IMG/VR virus record: IMGVR_UViG_3300033508_000214
Coordinates: 32,022-96,021 of that record
Length of the DNA: 64,000 nucleotides
Source: a virus
Reading direction: 5' to 3' (one strand)
Shown: positions 7,476 to 39,175 of the stretch, one piece after another
How positions within the stretch are numbered: position 1 is the first letter of the stretch
How the letters are laid out: each line of letters begins with the position of its first letter
Notes under the pieces: model-generated
Told to the model about the DNA's origin: nothing
What the model saw: the letters and a program-made list of their open reading frames with translations, nothing else
Database searches by the model: none
Translations under genes and position numbers: made by a program

Positions 7476-7822
7476 TAAGTAGCACTGCGCAAACTGTTGC
7501 GTCAAAACAACATAGGGCTAGAAGGGCTTAGAATGGCTATTTCAGCGTTTTTTTGGCTTGGGTGTAGGGTAGCCTTGGGATGCTTGCGTTTGGCCTGTAT
7601 AGCCCCTTTTGAAGGGTTTCCCTATGGGCTGACATCGGGTTATTTATAGCATCTAACGCACCGATTAGAAGCGTGAAGCGTGAAGTGTTGTATTTTTGCA
7701 ACAGTAAAAAATTTTTGAATTATTTTCGTTTGTGGTGTCCAAACAACACTTTTGCCCATATAATTACCCCAAGGGAAAAACAAGATGCTACAAAAATTGT
7801 AGCATCATTTTTGGAGTATATT

Positions 7823-18295: not shown

Positions 18296-19075
18296 TTACC
18301 ATGTTGGGAACATTGCCTCCCCAACATCAGTAGTTTTACGACTATACTTTTCGCTACTCTTTAGTACTTCTTGTTCAATTAGAGGATCTGGCATATTATC
18401 CCAATCGTTAGGGTCTAGAATCATATTTGATGTACGCAGACTAGGGTCAGCTACCCAGATTTGTCCTAACATAGTTAGGGTCAGGCTAGGAAGACCAAAC
18501 CATTCGGTATTCTGTAGACCTGTTAATGTCCAGCTAGAAATTGGCTTTTTCATACTACCAGCAGCAGGGCCTGATTTTACAGTTAGTCCTTGTGCTCTAA
18601 GCTCTAGTGCTCTATCTTTAGTTACCTCGGGGATTTCTGCGGTTGCAGCTTCAAACAGATTATCACCAATAATAACTTCTAGTTTTTCTCTAGACCAGCT
18701 AGAATATGGGATACCTTGAGCATCTTTAAGTGCTGCAATTAGGATTGGGACTAAAGATGAATACTTGCTGAACTCTTTAGTATTCTGGGACTTAACTAGC
18801 TTAGACCTACCTAGTCTAGTAATAACTCGCCATAGACCAATATCCCACGGCTTATTATTAATATTTTCCAAGTACAAAGACTTGGACTCATACTCACCTC
18901 TAGAGTTCTTAGTAGCAGTGTATGCGCCATAATATCCATAGATTTGGGGTAGCATCCACGCATTAAAGGCTGTAAGATTATGATCTACAGCCCACTTCTC
19001 TAGTTGCGAGTCGGTTAGTCTTTCAGCCTCATGGAACGGAAAGCTTTTAATATCGTTTTTATTTAGAATAAACAT
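18296..19075 (-). CDS. Conserved-looking hypothetical phage protein (259 aa)
   Basis: Long ORF, AGGT SD; no family recognised. Confidence 0.7.
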   Translation of the reverse strand: MFILNKNDIKSFPFHEAERLTDSQLEKWAVDHNLTAFNAWMLPQIYGYYGAYTATKNSRGEYESKSLYLENINNKPWDIGLWRVITRLGRSKLVKSQNTKEFSKYSSLVPILIAALKDAQGIPYSSWSREKLEVIIGDNLFEAATAEIPEVTKDRALELRAQGLTVKSGPAAGSMKKPISSWTLTGLQNTEWFGLPSLTLTMLGQIWVADPSLRTSNMILDPNDWDNMPDPLIEQEVLKSSEKYSRKTTDVGEAMFPTW

Positions 19076-24664: not shown

Positions 24665-25218
24665 CTTGATTCGCTTACTAAAACATTGTATAATTATTGC
24701 TTAAACGGAGAATCTAATGCGAACAAGCGGCGAAATGATTTTGAATGTCGATTTACCATATAATGGCTTTTGCGAAATTATATGTACTCAGGTTAAGTAT
24801 TGGGCAGGAGAAGGGCTCCCAACCTTTGAAGGCTCCCTAGCTACAATGAAAGAAGTCTACCCTGTAGAGTTTTCATATCTTCTTAAACGCAAGACTATAC
24901 GGGTTGGAAAAGAATTTTGAGCTTGTATGTTCGGTTAAAGTGTTCTATAATAGATGCTTAAACGGAGAAATTAAAATGGCTTTGGCATATACAAAATCGT
25001 TCTTAGTTGATGCTTTCTTGTGGCGTTATGCTGATGTTCTAGTTAAAGATACCGCTGAAGAAATAGCGTCTTATATTAAAATGGTTAATGACTTCTACGA
25101 CAAGGTAGGAAAAGATAAGTTTCGTATCTGGTGCTCTTTAGACGCAGACGAAATTAAGAGGTATAAAGCTGCAAAAAATGAGCTTGCGCATCCTGTATAA
25201 ATGATGTATAATTATTAC

Positions 25219-25299
25219 TTCTACAGCACATCGCGTACCACCTTTTAGGACGGAATTTAATTCCCAGACCGCTTATTCAGGGCGCACCGTGCTGTAGAA
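25219..25299 (+). ncRNA. Candidate structured ncRNA
   Basis: 11-bp closing stem TTCTACAGCAC/GTGCTGTAGAA starting just after a TTGCGC-N17-TATAAT promoter. Confidence 0.55.
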
Positions 25300-25301
25300 A
25301 C

Positions 25302-25448
25302 TAATAATTTAAGAATAGATAGGCTCACCATTCTTCCTAGACGAAGCCTCGCTGTATGCTTATATACACGCACCGGGTTCTAGTTAGTATGCCGCGAGTA
25401 ACGAATTACATAAGCTCTTTTTCGGTTCTATCTATTCTTAAATTATTA
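25302..25448 (+). ncRNA. Candidate structured ncRNA
   Basis: 21-bp perfect closing stem TAATAATTTAAGAATAGATAG/CTATCTATTCTTAAATTATTA. Confidence 0.6.
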
Positions 25449-25664
25449 ATAAAGTGCCAAGGCTTATTGCCGTAGGCTAGAAATATTCGAATTGCATGCT
25501 TCAGTGCGCTTGCCCAGTAAGCATCAGTAACTACTTAGCTACAAAGTACCTAAGACGGCAAATCTTAGCGAATACGGGTATGCAAAGTTAACCCTGGTTA
25601 AATCTGGTGGCAATATCTGAAACTAGACTAGTAGATATTTCGTTTGACACTTTATTAATAATTT
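25440..25664 (+). ncRNA. Candidate structured ncRNA
   Basis: Closing stem AAATTATTAATAAAGTG.CAA/TTG.CACTTTATTAATAATTT. Confidence 0.6.
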
Positions 25665-25750
25665 GGATGCTTGGGGGAGTGGTTGAACCCATCTGACTGT
25701 AAATCAGACCTGTAAAAAGCGCGTTCGTTCAAATCGAGCAGTATCCACCA
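25665..25750 (+). tRNA. tRNA-Tyr(GUA)
   Basis: TCTGA-CTGTAAA-TCAGA, variable arm, CCA. Confidence 0.9.
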
Positions 25751-25829
25751 TTTAAAGGCGAAAAGGGTTGCTCCATGCCAGTACCGTAAATACTGGCTAG
25801 CCTAGCTTTCTTTTACGGAGAATATTAAA

Positions 25830-26549
25830 ATGACAACAGGAATTTATAAGTTAAACTTTATTGGTACCGATAAAGTTTACATAGGTAAAGGTACCAATAT
25901 AGAAAGCAGACTAGCAAGGCATATTAATTTACTTAAAAATAATTCACATTCTAGGAAGATGAATGCAGCCTACGCAGAGTTTGGCACTCCTATAATGGAG
26001 ATTTTATGCGAATGCTCTATTGAAGAGTTAAATTCATTTGAGAATGAGACTATTGAAATATACAGTTCCGTAAATAACGGGTTTAATACTCTATACTGTG
26101 CAGAAGCTATGCCAGATGGTAGTTTATGCCCAGGAGAACTAAATGGTAGAGCAAAGTATTCTAATATCCAGATTACCGAGGTATTCAATATACTCGTTGA
26201 TAGTCCTACACTACTATACAAAGGGATATCCAGTATAACTGGTGTCTCTATTAATGTGATTGAGGAAATAGCTAGAGGTGCAAGACATAAATAGTTAGCT
26301 ACACTATTTCCAGAAAAGTACACAAAGTTATTTTTATTAAAAAATACCCGTAGATCGAGATCTAGTTCTGCAAAAGCTAAAGCTAAGGGTACTACGTATA
26401 AACAAGTACAGTCTCCGCATGGAGAACTATATACAGTAGATAATATTTATAAGTTTGCTCAAGAACATAGCTTAGACGACTGCAACCTTTGTAAATTATT
26501 AAATGGCAAGGCAAAATCTGTAAAAGGATGGAAATTAAGTATTATATAG
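25830..26549 (+). pseudogene. GIY-YIG homing endonuclease with in-frame TAG at 26292-26294
   Basis: GIY..YIG; after the TAG the frame continues (SPHGE..KFAQEH..KLLNG..GWK), matching the paralog C-termini. Confidence 0.8.
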
Positions 26550-26555
26550 TATAAT

Positions 26556-26630
26556 GTCGCATTAGACTTCTGGTGATGTCCTCAGCCTTTCACGCTGATC
26601 AGAGGGGATCGTAACCCCTATGCGACTCCA
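26556..26630 (+). tRNA. tRNA-Glu(UUC)
   Basis: TCAGC-CTTTCAC-GCTGA, CCA. Confidence 0.9.
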
Positions 26631-26773
26631 AAATCCCTGGGATGGGATAAGACTCAACCAACAGCTAGACAGCCTCTGGGCGAATCGCTGCGGTGCCCAA
26701 CAATGAGCTGAACCTAGCATGGCTTGACTAGGTTCCCATAATTAAACTGATTTTTCTTAGTTAGTTTAATTAT

Positions 26774-26856
26774 GGGCAACTGGCATATACAAATAGGTAC
26801 AGTTTCTCGCCTTAGAAGCGAGGCTTTTCCCGGTTCGAGTCCGGGGTTGCCCACCA
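26774..26856 (+). tRNA. tRNA-Leu(UAG), atypical D-arm, short variable arm
   Basis: GGGCAAC/GTTGCCC, CTCGC-CTTAGAA-GCGAG, canonical T-arm, CCA. Confidence 0.75.
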
Positions 26857-26882
26857 ATTAAACTGAATAATAAACTACCAAT

Positions 26883-26967
26883 GCGAGTATGGGGAAATTG
26901 GCTAGACCCAGGAGACTTAAAATCTCCCGCTTTAAGCATATCAGTTCGAATCTGATTACTCGCACCA
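26883..26967 (+). tRNA. tRNA-Leu(UAA)
   Basis: GGAGA-CTTAAAA-TCTCC, CCA. Confidence 0.92.
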
Positions 26968-27277
26968 AATAACTTAAACTATCATGCGTAAATTATACAA
27001 CACAATCACTCAAATAAGCGTAGGCTCTGAAACAGAAAATCCAGTATTTGGCGAATGCATTCGTGTTAAGCTAGATGACGAATGTGGAGGTATGTTCATT
27101 GTACTAGAACAAGATGGAGAAGATGACAGAACTCATCAAGTTCGTATTTGTTTTGATGAGCTAGTAAACATTAACCATGCTATATCAACTCTAGTTAATC
27201 AGCGTTTGGCAAAATAAATTTATCGGTTATACTTCTTAGGAGAGCAAGATGCAATTGTAAAACTACAGGAGCATAAT

Positions 27278-27592
27278 ATGGCTAGAACTTTTAAAGACAG
27301 TATTAAGAAATACCACTTTAAAGATTTTTGGGCACAAGATCGTATCCAATTAGAAGGATACGGATGCCGTTTAGCAAAAACAACAAAACCTAAGAAACGT
27401 AAAGAAGTAGACACTGAGGATCACTGGATGCGCACACCATCTTGGTGGACACATCTAGTAATGATTAGGCCACAGCGTAGGGCAGGAAAACTTTGGGAAT
27501 CCAAGTTTGTTAATTCTGATATTGATATGTGGGCATTAGAAGAAGCAGATGCTCCAATTGTTAGTAACAAACCTTATATCTACTTCTATTAA
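27278..27592 (+). CDS. Basic hypothetical protein
   Basis: AGGAG SD; 104 aa. Confidence 0.6.
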   Translation: MARTFKDSIKKYHFKDFWAQDRIQLEGYGCRLAKTTKPKKRKEVDTEDHWMRTPSWWTHLVMIRPQRRAGKLWESKFVNSDIDMWALEEADAPIVSNKPYIYFY

Positions 27593-27877
27593 CGTAAATT
27601 CTGTCTTGAATTTCTAACTAAAACATTGTATAATTAATGCTTAAACGGAGAAAACAATGTCTAAAGCACAAGTTATTAAGCGTGTTAATGCAGCCTGCAA
27701 CTTTTGGGCTGATACTTTTAATGAAGATTACTGTGAGTGTCTAAGCTGGGAAGAGGTTCAGGAAACGGATAAAGATAATAAAGAAGTATTATTTATGTTC
27801 AAAAAAGAACTTGGCGCGTGTGGGTATTAAAATTTACACTTGCGCAGCTTTTACCAAAGTGTTATAATTGTTACTTA

Positions 27878-28029
27878 ACGCGATAGAAGGGCACACCGAG
27901 GGGAACCTGCTATAGTTTGCTACATGATTAACTACCATTAGTATATTCTATACAATAAACCGCACGTCGTGCTTTTGATAAAGAGGGTACAGGCTAGAGT
28001 AGTTACCTAGGTTAGGGCCACTTTCGCGT
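27878..28029 (+). ncRNA. Candidate structured ncRNA
   Basis: ACGCGATAG/CTTTCGCGT closing stem directly after a TTGCGC-N17-TATAAT promoter; no ORF. Confidence 0.45.
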
Positions 28030-28089
28030 AGTATTAACTAGCTTGAGGCTAGTACCAGATTGACAGTTCTGGGTTATCAAAAGGTCAAT

Positions 28090-28165
28090 CAGATACTAGC
28101 TCACTTGGTAGAGCGCTAGCTTTGGGAGCTTGAGGCAGAAGGTTCGATCCCTTCGTATCTGACCA
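28090..28165 (+). tRNA. tRNA-Pro(UGG)
   Basis: CAGATAC/GTATCTG, loop TTTGGGA, CCA. Confidence 0.9.
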
Positions 28166-28166
28166 A

Positions 28167-28345
28167 TTAATTTAATACTAATTAGCATCCACTTCGGTGG
28201 GGGCTTTGCGAACCAGAGAAATAAAGGTATTCCGGCTGGTATATCCTTAAAGCGGTTCATCTCTATTGATAGTAGCGTCGAAACCTATGAACCTTAGAGT
28301 ATATAACTAGAGATAGTTATAGGTAGTATATTAGTATTAAATTAA
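28167..28345 (+). ncRNA. Candidate structured ncRNA
   Basis: 16-bp stem TTAATTTAATACTAAT/ATTAGTATTAAATTAA filling the Pro-Ala spacer. Confidence 0.6.
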
Positions 28346-28347
28346 AT

Positions 28348-28419
28348 GGGGTTGTAGTGCTAATGGGAACACACCGGTTTTGCAAATCGGAATTGAGAGT
28401 TCGATCCTCTCCAGCTCCA
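28348..28419 (+). tRNA. tRNA-Ala(UGC), CCA not encoded
   Basis: G3.U70, loop TTTGCAA. Confidence 0.88.
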
Positions 28420-28490
28420 CAAAAATTAACTTGATTTTTCTTTGCTTATGGTGCATAATATACTTATTATGACCAATAGAGTATCGAAAA

Positions 28491-29117
28491 ATGGAAAATT
28501 TTACTAATCAAATAATAAGTAAGCTACAACTAAATCCAGATAAGGTTTCGAGAAAAGCAATTCGTGGATGCAGTGGTTTTACTATTAAAGAACTAATTTA
28601 TAGTATTCTAACGCATACATCGTTAGAAACTGCATCAAATAGTTTAGGATATTCCTCTACTATTTCTATGAAAAAAGCCTTGTCTGAGTATATAACTCCT
28701 TATTTTGAACATCGGCGCGTAGAGTTTGGTTTTGGTGGTACTGGAAAAGGTGTACCTAAAACTTGGAAAGGCGAGCTACTATATTTTATAGGATATAAGG
28801 AATGTACTAGTTGTGCTACAGTTAAACCTATAGATGAGTTTGGTATTAATAATGGTAAAGGTTTACGTTCTGAATGTGGTAATTGCCATACTTTTGATAC
28901 CAAATTACAAAAAATTGATATTAAAAACAGAATACCTACATGGGTAGATATGCGTTCTATAAAGATGTTCTACTCAGCTTGTCCCAAAGGTATGCACGTA
29001 GATCATATTATACCTTTGAGAGGTACTTTAGTATCGGGGCTTCATGTACTAGAGAATTTGCAGTACTTATCTGCAAAAGATAATCTTGCTAAAAATAATA
29101 AGTATGACGTAATATAA
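28491..29117 (+). CDS. HNH homing endonuclease
   Basis: CxxC..CxxC; [17 protein letters not shown]...DN. Confidence 0.88.
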
Positions 29118-29326
29118 GGGTTTCTATGTTTAATCAAATTTCTAAAAGTAATACATCCACCTAGCATACCCTTATTCCCTATTGAATAAGGGGCTTCTGC
29201 CCCATTTTCTTTTGCCTGCTGATAGCATTAGGTTCAGACTAGGTATAGCTAGATCACTTATACTACCCACATCCATGCAAGGTCGCTACTTGTATATGTA
29301 GATGTTCCGCGACATTTGTACCCGGA

Positions 29327-29430
29327 TAACATATGCTAGTATTCTGCCTAGTCTTATACACTAGGTTCCTACATTGATCTGTATAAGGGATTAATACGGA
29401 GTAGATTGAAGAGAATGCTGGCATATGTTA
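29327..29430 (+). ncRNA. Candidate pseudoknotted ncRNA
   Basis: 19-bp closing stem; inner CCTAGT/ACTAGG hairpin whose loop CTTATAC can pair with GTATAAG. Confidence 0.55.
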
Positions 29431-30351
29431 ATTTTAGCACAACATAATCATATACTATGAAACGAAACAAAGCATTAAACAAACTAAAGTCTTATAGGTC
29501 TTATGTATCTACAATGAAGCGTAAGCGTTCTGACGAACTTTTTGACTGGCTAAAGATAGTGTATTGCCAATCTATGGGGATACCTTACCATGCATAGCTT
29601 TGCTTGGATAGGTTTTGAAAAAGTTCAATCAGTACCTGTAGTGTTTCCTATGACCCTATGGATTGTACCGGCTAATGATGGCGTAATGATTAGTAAATCA
29701 AAATTATGATAAACTTTTTAAGTTGGCTAGCAGGAATTGTAACAGGGGTTGTATTATATACATTTCTTGTATGCACATATTTAGTAAAATAAATTATGTC
29801 TTGAACGTATAACCAAAACATTGTATAATTAATGCTTAAACGGAGAACATAATGAAGTATATTAAAGGTTTGGAAAAAGAACTAAAAAAGGCATTAGCAG
29901 AACAGGATGAACATCCTCTTAGCGGTTCTACTGCTCGTAAGGTAGCTATGTTACAACGTGAAATTGAAGCAGCTTATAGAAAGAAAAACGATGAAAGCAT
30001 TTGAAGCGATAGCTATACTGGAAGCACTTGACCCTAGTCACGAAGTTACGCTGACTATTAACACTAATAAGTGTACTAAGTCATTTGAGCCGATTCCTAC
30101 TAAATCTACCCAAACAACTATATGGGATGACTATACTCGTGAATGGGTGCTTGGTAAGCAGTTCTGGCCTAATCAGAACCACTACGACAGTATTTCCACA
30201 AGTACTATTCATTGAAAGATACTTATGAAAGATAGTGACAAACGCAAGCTAGTGAAACGAAATGTATTCGTTCCACTAGCTATGAATAGAAAAGCAGGCT
30301 CACATACTAAACCGTATAAGAGCTTGCGAGGAAAAGAGAACCGTGATATTT

Positions 30352-30425
30352 GGGATTGAAACATTAAGGTGATGTAACGGCCCTTTAAGCCGTAAAACTC
30401 GGATCGTTACCGTGCAGTCCTACCA
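30352..30425 (+). tRNA. tRNA-Lys(UUU) with C33
   Basis: ACGGC-CCTTTAA-GCCGT, CCA. Confidence 0.8.
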
Positions 30426-30559
30426 TATTTAAGAATACTAAGGATCAGTTTAACCTTGTCGGCCGCATCGTGTTAAAACTCCTAAATCCCTGGCAGTCCA
30501 TGCGCGCTTCATGCGTCATTCTTCAGGCAAGTGAGAATAGTAGTATTCTTAAATATGGT
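30422..30559 (+). ncRNA. Candidate structured ncRNA
   Basis: 19-bp perfect stem ACCATATTTAAGAATACTA/TAGTATTCTTAAATATGGT. Confidence 0.6.
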
Positions 30560-30969
30560 GCCAAGCTTAGCTTAAACGCTCCCTTTGTTTAACTAGCTCA
30601 AATTGGCTAAAAATAAAGCTAAACTGGTCGAGTATGCTTTACCCATTATCAGACTTGAGGGCTGTCGTCCAATAGTAACAAGACAGTATATTCTAGCCTA
30701 GGGAGCTAGGGCATACTTTAGTAGTTTTGTCAGTGTATTCTGGAACGGATTGATAAACCGTGAAACTACTAAACTATGTCAATTATTAACACTTTAAATT
30801 ATGAATAACCTTATAGCTATTCCTAAAGAATACTTCAAAGAGAAACCATCCTTAGAAGATTATATTGCAGCCCATGCCCCTACTAATATGTTTCATATTT
30901 CCTTTCTAGAAACTCAGTATTGTAGATTCATGGTATCTAAAAACTATTGGGGTATGTCATTTTAATTAC

Positions 30970-31044
30970 TGGGGTATATTGTAGTAGAAAACACCGCAGA
31001 CTTTGACCCTGTTATCCTACGTTTGAACCGTAGTACCCCTGTCA
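30970..31044 (+). tRNA. tRNA-Gln(UUG), degenerate
   Basis: Loop CTTTGAC, 1:72 mismatch; 3' end TCA and altered T-loop. Confidence 0.65.
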
Positions 31045-31407
31045 TTCTAGTATAGTGCTAGACGTTTAAGCCCATAAGCGTATGTTCTCCACGTAAGTTG
31101 AGAAGCTGGATTACATAACCAGCAAGAATTATTCCAGTAGACCCAAGTATGCACATGGGCGACACTGTTAATGCCTAATTAAATAGACTCTATTACCGGA
31201 TTCAATCTTTATAGCTGAACAAAACCTTAGTAAGACCCATCTATCAGGGTATATACCAGCCAATAGCTATGATTACTATAATAGCATAAAGCGCATACTC
31301 TGCGTATTGGTGAACATATAAGTTCTTAAAATCACGATAGAAGCTATAAAAATTTGAGCTTGTATCTATTATTAAATTGTTCTATAATAGATACTTCAGA
31401 ACAAAAG

Positions 31408-31573
31408 TTAATTAAAGATTAAACTCTGGCTGTGGCCACAGTAAAATGAACCAGCTATACACAATACTAAGCAGGGGTAATTATCCTGTGAAGTAGCGAG
31501 ACGCTGAACGGTGTATTAAGGTAATTCCTTGTTAAACCTAATAGAGTTTGCACAGAGTCTAATCTTTAATTAA
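31408..31573 (+). ncRNA. Candidate structured ncRNA
   Basis: Closing stem TTAATTAAAGATTA.ACTCTG/CAGAGT.TAATCTTTAATTAA after a promoter. Confidence 0.6.
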
Positions 31574-31826
31574 TCCTAGTGATGTAGTGTAGTACCAAAT
31601 CTTCTGAGTCCTTGTGACTTTCGACAAACCACACAATTTTTATTGTGTGTAAAGCTAAGGGAATGACAGTTACTTCATATGAATGATCTAAAGCACGGAC
31701 TTTATCCTCCGTACCCTTGACCCTAGTAGGGACTTGGGAAATAGATGAAAAACCTCGATTTCTGGCATTACGAGGCTAAACATAAGGCCAGAGCACTGAC
31801 AACGAAAATTCTCACTGCTAGGATTA
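31571..31826 (+). ncRNA. Y RNA-like ncRNA (long form) upstream of Ro60
   Basis: TAATCCTAG/CTAGGATTA and AGTGA/TCACT stems; CAGTTACTTC..CACTG internal motif shared with the 33653 element. Confidence 0.6.
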
Positions 31827-31850
31827 GTTACCCTTAACCAAAGGAACTTA

Positions 31851-31961
31851 ATGTATTATAAAGATTTAGAAACTGACGCTAAAGCTAAATGTGATCACGA
31901 TGCAGCGCAAAACGCTGCTGCTGCTGCCGCTGCTAAGCGTCGTACTAAGAAAACTAACTAA
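31851..31961 (+). CDS. 36-aa Ala-rich basic peptide
   Basis: AAGGA SD; ..NAAAAAAAKRRTKKTN. Confidence 0.45.
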   Translation: MYYKDLETDAKAKCDHDAAQNAAAAAAAKRRTKKTN

Positions 31962-32055
31962 AATTATTACTTAGTAATATAGACGAAAAGGCTTAGCGGT
32001 ACTGCTAGTACCACGAATACTAGATAGTCTCCCTTCTTTCAACTAAAAGGTACTT

Positions 32056-33369
32056 ATGTCCTCAATTAATCATATTCCTCGTCAACCTTCACACACAGTT
32101 AATCACGAAGGTACTAAAGTACCAGCTATTTCTGCTGAAAAGCAGCTTAAGCGTCTAGTTCTAGCAGCTATGCTATGGGAGAATCAATTTTACTCCGATG
32201 GGCAAGATTCAGCTAAGCTAGTGCGTGATCTAGTGTCTACGGTAGAACCTAGCCAAGTTGCTATCCTTGCTATTGAAGCACGCCATAATTACAAACTTCG
32301 GCATATGCCTTTGTTTATATGTCGTGAGCTGGCTCGTATTGGTCAGCTTAATGCTGATACACTTAACAAGTGCATTCAGCGTGCAGACGAGCTTGGAGAG
32401 TTTCTAGCTATGTATTGGTCTGAGAGCAAATGCCCTATTTCCAATCAGGTTAAGAAAGGCTTGGCTCAAGCATTCGGTAAGTTCAATGAGTATCAATTGG
32501 CTAAGTACGATCGTGATAATGCTTATGTAAGCATTAGGGATGTGATGTTCCTAAGCCATGTGAAACCTTGTGATAAGGCACAAGAAGCATTATTCAAACG
32601 TGTAGCTAATAAGGAGCTTACAACTCCATTAACTTGGGAAACTGAGTTATCCGCTGGTGCAGACAAAGCATACACTTTCACTCGCCTTATGGCGGAGAAG
32701 AAGTTGGGGGCACTAGCATTCTTGCGGAATCTTCGTAATATGGTTCAAGCTGGTGTATCGGAAGATACAATCCGTGCGTATACTTTAACACTTAATGTGG
32801 ATAAAGTACTTCCGTTTAGATTCGTAGCCGCTGCACGTATTGTACCTCAATTTGAGGATATGCTGGAACGTCTAATGCTAAAATCATTAGATACTTCAGA
32901 AAAACTGCCAGGTAAAACTGTGCTAATGGTTGACGTATCAGTCTCTATGTTTGGTACTAAGATTTCCGCTAAAAGCGATCTTGATCGCTTTGATGCTGCA
33001 GCTGCTTTAGCTATTTTGTGTAGCTCTGTATGCGAACAGGTAGAAATCTATACCTTTAGTAACAATCTAGTACGAATAGCTCCTCGTACTGGGTTTGCTT
33101 TGGCATATGCACTTAAAGGAAGCCAACAGATTGCAGGAACACACCTAGGTTCCTCGCTTGCTAAACTACAGGCCAAAAGCCAGTATGATCGTCTGATTGT
33201 TATTACTGATGAGCAGTATGACGATGCAATTGTACCCCCAAAATCAGACAAGGCTTACATCCTAAATGTAGGATCATATCAAAACGGTGTAAACCGTGGA
33301 GATTATTTGACAATTACCGGGTTTTCAGAAGCGTGTATTGACTATATACGTGAAGTAGAAAAAGAGTAG
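32056..33369 (+). CDS. Ro60/TROVE-domain RNA-binding protein with vWA domain
   Basis: NHEG, RADE, YQLAKY, TWETELS, ALAFLRNLRN, VLPFRF, DVSxSM MIDAS-like motif, ITDEQ. Confidence 0.92.
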   Translation: MSSINHIPRQPSHTVNHEGTKVPAISAEKQLKRLVLAAMLWENQFYSDGQDSAKLVRDLVSTVEPSQVAILAIEARHNYKLRHMPLFICRELARIGQLNADTLNKCIQRADELGEFLAMYWSESKCPISNQVKKGLAQAFGKFNEYQLAKYDRDNAYVSIRDVMFLSHVKPCDKAQEALFKRVANKELTTPLTWETELSAGADKAYTFTRLMAEKKLGALAFLRNLRNMVQAGVSEDTIRAYTLTLNVDKVLPFRFVAAARIVPQFEDMLERLMLKSLDTSEKLPGKTVLMVDVSVSMFGTKISAKSDLDRFDAAAALAILCSSVCEQVEIYTFSNNLVRIAPRTGFALAYALKGSQQIAGTHLGSSLAKLQAKSQYDRLIVITDEQYDDAIVPPKSDKAYILNVGSYQNGVNRGDYLTITGFSEACIDYIREVEKE

Positions 33370-33459
33370 GTAAATAGGTTGTTAGTACTAGCTTTCCCTA
33401 AGTGGCTAGGAGGACAGGAATTCCTGAAGGCGCTAACAACGCTACTACTAATACCTACT
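33365..33459 (+). ncRNA. Candidate structured ncRNA downstream of Ro60
   Basis: AGTAGGTA/TACCTACT and GTTGTTAGT/GCTAACAAC stems. Confidence 0.45.
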
Positions 33460-33652
33460 GGATGCTAAGATTGGTTAATGATCTGACCTTCTAGATATAA
33501 ACCATGCGTAATCAGTCGAAAAATGGTAGTAATAATGCACACCTCTATGAACGGTAGTCAGTCCAGAGACCAAAACCAAGTGCAGCATTAATTCAGACTC
33601 TAAAGGTAGCCAGTCCTTGTCCAAACTTGAAGCTCTAAACCAAAGTACAAGG

Positions 33653-33739
33653 TTTAGAAAAACATATAGTGTTAAATACGGTTACTTCTATTTTTGGTAT
33701 ATTTCGTTCCGTATTGCCTTGTTCTTATGTTTTTCTAAA
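33653..33739 (+). ncRNA. Y RNA-like ncRNA (short form) downstream of Ro60
   Basis: 14-bp closing stem, internal loop, AATACGG/CCGTATT helix, GGTTACTTC motif, pyrimidine-rich loop. Confidence 0.65.
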
Positions 33740-33750
33740 TCTTTTAATAT

Positions 33751-36441: not shown

Positions 36442-36518
36442 CTCTCCTTAGCATAACTGAATAATGTACTTCGCTACGAACGAAAAGACTGAAGGTTTAA
36501 TCCCTTTGGGAGAGGTCA
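36442..36518 (+). tRNA. tRNA-Arg(ACG), degenerate
   Basis: TTCG-CTACGAA-CGAA; altered D and T loops, TCA end. Confidence 0.6.
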
Positions 36519-36572
36519 TATATTAGTAGTGTGTCACCCTTTACCCTAGTTGACGACTTGGGCTACTAATAT

Positions 36573-36875
36573 ATGGCTAAAACATTTTCAAATCTAAAAA
36601 ACCCTAAGTGTGGCATGCACGATATTATTAGCTTCGGAAAGCTAAAAGGATGTAGAGTATGTGACGTAATAGAAGATCACTACGACTACCTAATATGGGC
36701 AGAAAAGCAAGGTTACATTAAGTTTCAGGAAATAGTAGTTGAAACTATCCAAGAAGCTGCTCATTTCGAAAAATGGACATCCCCAGAAGAATCATCAAAT
36801 CCTCATAAATATGAATATCTTTTTGAAATCGCTACACGACAAGAAGAGGACTGGTATGACGATATTCCCTACTAA
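36573..36875 (+). CDS. Hypothetical protein with FGK.KG motif (DUF3820/ExoX C-terminal-like)
   Basis: ISFGKLKG..V.D...DYLIW. Confidence 0.6.
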   Translation: MAKTFSNLKNPKCGMHDIISFGKLKGCRVCDVIEDHYDYLIWAEKQGYIKFQEIVVETIQEAAHFEKWTSPEESSNPHKYEYLFEIATRQEEDWYDDIPY

Positions 36876-39065: not shown

Positions 39066-39175
39066 GCGCGTTGTAGGTGAGAAGGGAGGTGGAAACGTCC
39101 CTAAACTATGTATGGTGAAGGCGTCCACCTTGCAGCATCCTCTATCGTGGGTTCGATTCCCACCAGCGTGCTCCA
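39066..39175 (+). ncRNA. tRNA-like RNA with 8-bp acceptor stem, T-arm and CCA
   Basis: GCGCGTTG/CAGCGTGC-T-CCA; GTGGG-TTCGATT-CCCAC; GAGGTGGA/TCCACCTT helix in place of D and anticodon arms. Confidence 0.65.

Follow-up and report, generated by a model that had tools for sequence, protein, structure and literature searches.

Clamped small RNAs among the transfer RNA genes of a T5-like phage: a mixed set, probably of the T5 stable RNA kind and partly linked to Ro60

The stable small RNAs encoded in the transfer RNA (tRNA) clusters of phages T4 and T5 are long-standing annotations to which no function has been assigned. What such RNAs might be is a question raised again by the window analyzed here, a 64,000-nt stretch of the IMG/VR virus record IMGVR_UViG_3300033508_000214 (positions 32,022 to 96,021 of the record). 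Between positions 25219 and 33459 of this window, the initial annotation had placed ten non-coding units, interleaved with tRNA genes and each closed by terminal inverted repeats that pair into a stem, referred to below as the clamp. We conclude, with a probability of roughly 0.6, that these units are small RNA genes of the T5 'stable RNA' kind and that they are of mixed types that do not make up a single family. They are encoded on the tRNA strand of a T5-like phage, selection on their clamps acts at the RNA level and they are placed in register with promoters and tRNA ends.

The clamps were scanned for as uninterrupted stems enclosing 50-260 nt, with G·U pairs allowed, over the 64-kb window, and 60 block shuffles served as control. 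Stems of at least 15 bp numbered nine, against a shuffle mean of 0.42 (maximum 4), and seven of these nine fall within 25.3-33.8 kb. At a limit of 14 bp, 10 stems were found (shuffle mean 1.07), and at 10 bp there were 122, compared with a mean of 86 in the shuffles. The clamps of units 2 (22 bp), 3 (19 bp), 5 (16 bp), 6 (19 bp), 7 (20 bp) and 9 (15 bp) are well above chance, and that of unit 8 (14 bp) is intermediate. The scan also returned two clamps outside the initial list, at 33649-33743 (18 bp, just before tRNA-Ser) and at 36514-36578 (17 bp). Relatives were collected with the Ro60 protein, which the window also encodes, and comprise 17 IMG/VR loci and 80 metagenome loci, cited below by L numbers where needed. 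The ten units and the second additional clamp are:

25219..25299, + strand: unit 1, promoter-proximal hairpin RNA of 81 nt with an 11-bp clamp (fold z = -3.6)
25302..25448, + strand: unit 2, 147 nt, 22-bp clamp (seen in the fold, the clamp scan and the transcript fold)
25438..25666, + strand: unit 3, 229 nt, 19-bp clamp, ending at the +1 position of tRNA-Tyr
27878..28029, + strand: unit 4, weakly clamped leader next to the promoter of the tRNA-Pro operon (fold z = -1.1)
28163..28347, + strand: unit 5, tRNA-Pro-linked structured RNA, 16-bp clamp, filling the spacer between tRNA-Pro and tRNA-Ala (model R2)
29327..29430, + strand: unit 6, 104 nt, 19-bp clamp, homologue in L067 (77% identity)
30421..30560, + strand: unit 7, 140 nt, 20-bp clamp with 5' arm ACCAUAUUUAAGAAUACUA, homologue in L067 (nhmmer E = 6e-17)
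30711..30779, + strand: unit 8, hairpin, 14-bp clamp, homologous to a hairpin in the two-piece transfer-messenger RNA (tmRNA) of a relative
31407..31574, + strand: unit 9, 168 nt, 15-bp clamp, homologues in L025 and L028 (E = 6e-7)
33361..33461, + strand: unit 10, three-way-junction RNA starting at the Ro60 stop codon (model R3)
36514..36578, + strand: additional 17-bp clamp, beginning in the 3' end of tRNA-Arg

Do these clamps act as RNA or as DNA? The AT-rich relatives carry the same clamped class, with up to 17 clamps of at least 14 bp per 21 kb (L026). Read on the tRNA strand, the sequences yielded 212 clamps containing 276 G·U pairs, and read on the opposite strand 148 clamps containing 88. 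G·U pairs are thus three times commoner on the tRNA strand, which argues for selection at the RNA level and agrees with the original description of the units as non-coding RNA elements of that strand. Inverted repeats might instead work at the DNA level, as miniature transposable elements, as homing-endonuclease or recombination sites or as replication palindromes, a notion to which the terminal repeats of 15-24 bp, the many homing endonuclease genes of the region and the seemingly swapped interiors of relatives would lend themselves. However, every element is single-copy in the genome, compensatory changes preserve pairing and the arms are in register with the CCA ends of tRNAs. Given the strand asymmetry of G·U pairs (276 on + versus 88 on -), DNA-level readings were rejected; we consider them highly improbable.

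The clamps of the relatives also resemble each other in build. A clamp starts inside the ACCA of an ARAGORN-called tRNA in 30 of 100 cases and ends within 8 nt of the next tRNA in 20 of 100. CCA opens 40% of the 192 distinct 5' arms (background 8%), and the seven positions that follow it contain less than 10% G+C, with the consensus CCA-UAUUUUAG. Further inward, a U[UA]AG box is found in 48-59% of the long arms versus 12% of chance-length stems, and in 61 of 138 cases its G sits 11-12 nt from the outer arm end; arms are most often 19 bp long. Strand, CCA register, box and length together show that the clamps share one RNA-level design. L106, a locus without Ro60 that was reached via the neighbouring phosphoesterase gene, has 24 tRNAs, 5 long-stem clamps and no CCAUAU handles. 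Being a 15%-complete fragment, this sole informative locus is not decisive on clamps outside Ro60-bearing phages.

In the window itself, the units had been described as abutting tRNAs and promoter starts almost exactly, and for units 1, 3, 4, 5 and 7 this register was found. The first base of unit 1 lies about 7 nt past the TATAAT at 25207-25212, and that of unit 4 10 nt past the TATAAT at 27863-27868, a few nucleotides from the predicted start. The end of unit 3 coincides with tRNA-Tyr +1, the gap between tRNA-Pro and tRNA-Ala is occupied by unit 5 to within 1-3 nt, and unit 7 starts within the ACCA of a tRNA-Lys-like element that was not called as a tRNA. In units 3, 5 and 7, and likewise in the clamps at 33649 and 36514, the helix is in register with the preceding CCA and with the 5' end of the next tRNA. 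The 532 nt of 25219-25750, folded as a single transcript, gave three clamped modules and, after them, a correctly formed tRNA-Tyr cloverleaf (z = -3.0); the unit 1 hairpin is retained in this fold. Unit 3 has 11 nt in common with the 3' arm of unit 2. Promoters of a sigma-70-type family, CTTGA-N17-TATAAT-TAATGCTTAAAC, are present in at least 13 copies on the + strand of the island. The TATAAT ahead of unit 4 belongs to this family, as do two early promoters ahead of units 1 and 9:

25174..25218, + strand: early promoter CTTGCG-N17-TATAAT, a member of this repeat family, with its predicted start at the first base of unit 1
31350..31397, + strand: early promoter ahead of unit 9, a member of the same family

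Early promoters upstream and the register with tRNA ends favour the earlier proposal that the units belong to polycistronic tRNA transcripts; the excision from these transcripts that it also proposed is a prediction.

Whether the interiors are conserved was addressed by homologue searches and covariation, two of the checks named in the initial annotation. Units 5 and 10 proved to be conserved, strongly covarying families, and units 6, 7 and 9 have homologues with compensatory changes. Model R2 detects the unit 5 family in 15 loci, nearly always directly 3' of tRNA-Pro. MAFFT alone aligned these tRNA-Pro cassettes poorly and worked after closer metagenomic relatives had been added. In a model-guided alignment of 12 sequences, 89% of cells pair (slid controls, 34-49%) and both partners have changed in 42 of 44 pairs, counts that lean towards the model because the alignment was fitted to it. 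Model R3 detects unit 10 in 20 loci, all of them on the + strand after Ro60 and most starting at the Ro60 stop codon. Here 95% of cells pair (35-46% in slid controls), with double changes in 20 of 23 pairs. In relatives, the closing stem that unit 10 keeps is a 5-bp AGUAG/CUACU, and not its outer 8-bp clamp.

Unit 6 and its homologue in L067, which adjoins tRNA-Thr, can be compared over 35 pairs, four of them compensatory, five changed on one side and none broken, with loops that are almost invariant. A 2-nt indel between the two sequences disfavours coding, and the indels of units 6 and 7 relative to L067 include no multiples of three. For unit 7 (77% identity to L067), the clamp is identical and the interior about 70% identical, with four compensatory pairs and none broken. 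The homologues of unit 9 have conserved loops and compensatory changes in the clamp.

L013 carries a complete two-piece (permuted) tmRNA at 18601-18961 (beta_tmRNA, 131 bits), and unit 8 matches the hairpin 3' of the CCA of its acceptor piece; it is probably a relic of that hairpin, the only part of the tmRNA left in the window (30561-30779). An identity of unit 8 as an intact piece of tmRNA was discarded, as no tmRNA model matches in the window and the T arm is missing. A separate weak match to a tmRNA 3' end lies at 39146-39163. The sole nhmmer match of unit 1 is in L029 (E = 0.9) and that of unit 2 is a clamp cassette of L026 (E = 0.18), both weak yet syntenic; units 3 and 4 have no nhmmer homologue among the relatives. 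At the position of unit 3, clamped cassettes precede tRNA-Tyr in L026, L029, L032 and L037, and their interiors are unrelated. Unit 4 is absent from L029, whose alignment runs up to 27887. It is a doubtful unit and the least supported of the ten, with position as its one argument. The interiors are independent modules, conserved in units 5, 6, 7, 9 and 10, a tmRNA relic in unit 8, lineage-specific in units 1-3 and doubtful in unit 4.

In agreement with the earlier remark that the interiors differ from each other, no BLAST links were found between window cassettes, and each covariance model matches its own unit alone in the window. An all-against-all BLAST of 147 cassette interiors gave links among the closest phages only, and all window cassettes were singletons. 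Cassettes at equal positions, after tRNA-Lys or before tRNA-Tyr, have interiors that are unrelated between phages. Such turnover behind conserved clamp ends is what would be expected if the clamps were mere processing or insulating devices (RNase III sites or folding insulators) around filler or decayed genes, and the tmRNA relic in unit 8, the degenerate tRNA-like elements of the island, the uniform clamp geometry and the correct folding of tRNA-Tyr beside three clamped modules point the same way. However, a spacer needs no structured interior of 100-200 nt, and only 3-10 nt lie between many of the tRNAs in these clusters. The conserved unpaired loops and covarying internal helices of the unit 5 and unit 10 families, and of the RNA family found downstream of Ro60 (see below), are likewise at odds with filler, as are the nearly unchanged loops that unit 6 shares with L067. 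We therefore regard spacers as an improbable account of the units, though the least improbable of the alternatives to small RNA genes of the T5 kind.

The Ro60 gene itself lies inside the island, and two RNAs not in the initial list flank it:

31575..31826, + strand: large RNA upstream of Ro60, between unit 9 and Ro60, with GUAGUGUAG...GUUACUUCAUA motifs
32056..33369, + strand: Ro60 orthologue of 437 aa with TROVE and vWA domains (Pfam TROVE, E = 3e-10; vWA_Ro60, E = 1e-5), for which phage homologues were detected
33645..33747, + strand: clamped RNA downstream of Ro60, 18-20 bp clamp, before tRNA-Ser (model R1)

The downstream RNA is the clearest companion of Ro60 and the best candidate for a Y-RNA-like partner. 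Model R1 detects its family on the + strand in 51 loci at E < 2e-8. Of the 64 loci whose sequence continues for at least 900 nt past Ro60, 48 contain it. It lies at a median of 145 nt past the stop codon, and the loci that lack it are mostly distant, GC-rich phages. The RNAs are 95-100 nt long; 94% of cells pair (slid controls, 34-49%), and compensatory changes are seen in 30 of 31 pairs. Unpaired motifs are A-U-GG-UG on the 5' side, CUUAUUCC (CUU(A/G)UUCC) on the 3' side and an apical UUACUUC. Within the helix, nothing is more invariant than the U(U/A)AG box, which keeps the same register (U10 and U11 in 47 of 48 sequences). Larger cassettes that precede Ro60 in relatives have the same junction motifs as this RNA, and so does the 31575-31826 RNA of the window. 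The fold of the latter is not significant (z = -1.0); its GUAGUGUAG and GUUACUUCAUA motifs are shared with the cassettes before Ro60 in L004-L016 and with the YrlA-like modules of CcrColossus. In that phage (L021), five tandem modules with 13-16 bp stems and a shared handle lie upstream of Ro60 at 1978-2965. They read GGUGGCGUAG...GAUACUUCG...CUUGUUCC, which the motifs of the post-Ro60 RNA resemble, and three of the five match Rfam YrlA below threshold (42, 30 and 30 bits). The CcrColossus record annotates only tRNA-Gln and terminators in this region. Between unit 10 and the post-Ro60 RNA of the window, the non-coding stretch 33460-33645 shows block conservation with L017, L024, L025, L029 and L034 and contains two copies of GGUAG(U/C)CAGUCC.

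Could all cassettes be partner RNAs of the phage Ro60, a Y-RNA-like library with one double-stranded handle and differing effector modules? Y RNAs are defined by a long terminal stem and variable modules (PMC4201824; PMC12135203). A Ro60 gene within the island and the five tandem clamped YrlA-like modules before Ro60 in CcrColossus would accord with such a library, and the U(U/A)AG box, invariant in the Ro60-linked helix, is enriched in the other clamps. However, the junction motifs of the Ro60-linked RNAs (UGGUG / CUUAUUCC, UUACUUC) are missing from units 1-9. With filters off, R1 gave 13 bits for unit 8, 9 bits for unit 6 and nothing for the other units, and R3 matched only unit 10 in the window (97 bits). 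Rfam YrlA had no match at 23-43 kb of the window at E <= 5, nor in L004, L013 and L017 at E <= 1, though the CcrColossus control was detected; no tRNA or YrlA model match, as a tRNA-like domain with T and D arms would give, lies inside any unit. The Ro60-binding motif that Y RNAs carry close to their 5' end is GNCGAA N0-1 G (PMC4201824). Motifs of this type are essentially absent from the units: GNCGAANG has 8 matches in the window against 9.5 expected, a chance level, and none inside a unit, and GNCGAAG, with 19 matches against 10.5 expected, is mildly enriched window-wide (1 of 100 shuffles reached 19) and has a single copy inside a unit, at 25340 in unit 2. Unit 9 lies 480 nt upstream of Ro60, and units 1-8 lie 1.3-6.8 kb away with promoters and genes between. 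Finally, T5 has the same kind of RNA but, to our knowledge, no Ro60 gene (the T5 record was not searched for one). A common Ro60 library is therefore unlikely, somewhat more so than the spacer account.

The RNAs tied to Ro60 are unit 10, the 31575-31826 RNA and the 33645-33747 RNA, and these are likely candidates for Y-RNA-like partners. Of the functions first suggested for the units, a role as Ro60 cargo is accordingly retained for unit 10, to which the two newly found RNAs are added, and dropped for the others, which have neither the junction motifs nor a match to R1, R3 or YrlA.

The genomic setting of the island is that of a T5-like phage. Gene annotation of the 96-kb contig of which the window is part revealed T5-like markers in the window, among them an NAD-dependent DNA ligase gene in two parts with a homing endonuclease gene between, and genes for a D5-like regulator, a DnaB-like helicase, a primase, a DNA polymerase and an SbcCD-like nuclease. 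The island extends from 24.0 to 42.0 kb and carries 18-20 tRNA genes on the + strand, small open reading frames and GIY-YIG and HNH genes; homing endonuclease genes are numerous in the region.

Several features of the island were noted beside the units. A GIY-YIG homing endonuclease frame at 25830-26549 contains one in-frame TAG at 26292-26294, beyond which it stays open for 85 further codons that look like the DNA-binding half, and the relative L020 has a CUA-anticodon tRNA at 7578-7664 that ARAGORN labels 'Pyl'. A structured leader, AAGGCGAAAAGG...CCAGUACC...ACUGG...GGAGA, is conserved before this GIY-YIG gene (25751-25829) and before Ro60 (31972-32055), and is also found in L024, L026 (twice) and L034; it contains a GNCGAA-like string and sequesters the ribosome-binding site. 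A tRNA-like element at 30970-31041 scores 33.6 bits with Rfam, is not called by ARAGORN and is 82% identical to tRNA-Gln of L026. The element next to unit 7 is listed separately:

30351..30425, + strand: tRNA-Lys(UUU)-like element, called by neither ARAGORN nor Rfam, whose ACCA opens the unit 7 clamp

It is the positional homologue of tRNA-Lys in L067 and L013. Its anticodon loop (CCUUUAA) carries C33, and its T stem a U·U mismatch. Either the element is in decay or it represents a variant able to evade an anticodon nuclease.

What kind of RNA gene, then, are the units? Rfam, at gathering as well as permissive thresholds, returned only tRNAs in the window, and megablast and blastn searches against 50,697 phage records matched only tRNAs and an HNH gene. 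The earlier statement that the units fit no known family is hence upheld as far as Rfam goes, where no unit matched, and needs amending in that a known kind exists, the stable RNAs of T5 and T4. For T5 we relied on the annotation of GenBank record NC_005859 (locus L023). It lists eight misc_RNAs among tRNA and HNH genes (RNAIII, RNAI, RNA1, RNA2H, RNAIV, RNA2, RNA3 and RNAX), most of them with the remark 'stable RNA with unknown functions'. RNAIII, RNA2H and RNAIV fold with terminal clamps of 12 bp, about 10-14 bp and about 8 bp, respectively. Folded with its flanks (L023 8279-8398), RNAIII forms a 20-bp helix that reaches from the GCCA end of RNAI into tRNA-His, and its annotated ends fall inside this helix and leave a 2-nt overhang on the 3' side, as an RNase III cut would. 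T5 mutants that have lost large parts of their tRNA region are viable, which marks the region as accessory; it supplies a counter-defence tRNA-Lys (PMC11464382).

How might such RNAs be made? We propose that the units would be co-transcribed with the tRNAs from the strong sigma-70-type early promoters. Maturation enzymes of the flanking tRNAs could release them, RNase P at the 5' end of the next tRNA and an endonuclease at the clamp base, immediately 3' to the CCA that precedes it. A helix of about 19 bp, almost purely A/U next to the CCA:UGG pairs, with the U(U/A)AG box at a fixed place, suggests that the clamp is read by one double-strand-specific protein, which would most likely be the host RNase III, cutting near the helix base. 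The distal box of RNase III sites lies about one helical turn from the cut. RNA ends that are buried in this way should be stabilised against RNase E and 3' exonucleases. The clamp left over after processing would hide both ends from the 5'-end-dependent RNase E and from 3' exonucleases, and the RNAs, with both ends buried, would therefore accumulate. As for the interiors other than those linked to Ro60, our best guess is binding to proteins of the host or of the phage, in early takeover or in counter-defence, with functions that are accessory and evolve fast; such a role fits their fast turnover, accessory location and predicted early expression.

Several points weigh against assigning the units to the T5 kind and against the processing route proposed for them. 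Units 1-4 have no convincing homologue in nhmmer searches over the relatives. The clamps of units 1, 4 and 10 (11 bp, 6 bp plus bulges and 8 bp, respectively) are at chance level; all ten units fold with their terminal pairings at the coordinates first given, and a long clamp as their common mark fails for these three. The units resemble none of the T5 RNAs in sequence, by blastn or with R1, R2 and R3 run on L023. For an uncultured phage, we infer transcription, processing sites and accumulation from the sequence. The part given to RNase III is suggested by helix geometry and by one T5 annotation, and the overhang of RNAIII may be coincidental, because its 3' end is the base before tRNA-His. 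The U(U/A)AG box, being most conserved in the Ro60-linked helix, could point to Ro60 instead.

A more far-reaching version would make the handle of about 19 bp, CCA-UAUUU(A/U)AG, the recognition element of Ro60 or of a double-strand-specific nuclease, and the island a fast-changing library of swappable decoy or adaptor RNA modules that serve takeover or counter-defence and are exchanged by recombination within the handles. We offer this as a speculation that is unlikely to hold in full. Should a single protein indeed recognise the handle, the island would amount to a modular RNA toolkit, with a logic like that of anti-defence gene islands. In this uncultured T5-like clade the class is much denser than in the phages for which it was annotated and has a recognisable common design (CCA start, almost pure A/U lower helix, box at a fixed position and a modal 19 bp). 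At least three strongly covarying families are absent from Rfam, and two of them are tightly linked to the phage Ro60 gene, so that the function of such RNAs can be approached with defined RNAs and a defined protein. Two easily conflated sets are also separated, the Ro60 partner RNAs, three of them here, and the wider set of clamped tRNA-cluster RNAs.

Several known systems resemble these RNAs in part. Y RNAs (YrlA/YrlB, RF02553, and Yrl1/Yrl2 of the Thermus phage phiLo) likewise have a terminal stem around a variable module, and several such RNAs stand beside Ro60. This position is shared by unit 10, 31575-31826 and 33645-33747, and the last two also share GGUG..., ...ACUUC... and CUU(A/G)UUCC with the YrlA-like modules of CcrColossus. 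Unlike Y RNAs, the window RNAs lack a tRNA-like domain, the GNCGAA motif and an Rfam match. The RNase III stems of rRNA operons and of T7 early transcripts resemble the clamps in being helices of about 20 bp whose strands lie on either side of a functional RNA within a polycistronic transcript, and RNase III sites are set by sequence boxes in the helix (PMC1540722). In rRNA operons the stems are cut away; in contrast, the mature RNA would retain most of its clamp, as the T5 annotation suggests. In T4, the species 1 and species 2 RNAs (rnaC and rnaD) are small stable RNAs at the end of the tRNA cluster, next to the GIY-YIG gene segB. Unlike the window units, rnaC is tRNA-like with a T arm and neither RNA has a long terminal clamp; no sequence similarity to the units was detected. 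The closest comparison is with T5, whose stable RNAs are, like the units, non-coding RNAs of 70-230 nt encoded on the same strand among tRNA and homing endonuclease genes and behind early promoters, RNAIII sharing with the clamps of the window a helix that extends from the CCA end of the preceding RNA to the next tRNA. In contrast to T5, the clamps of the window are longer (15-24 bp), more numerous and share the CCAUAUUU(A/U)AG consensus, and a Ro60 gene with RNAs of its own lies within the island. The clamped RNAs are thus a real finding that extends past the coordinates first listed, of a kind known from T5 and T4 and in a variant that is denser, better defined and partly Ro60-linked.

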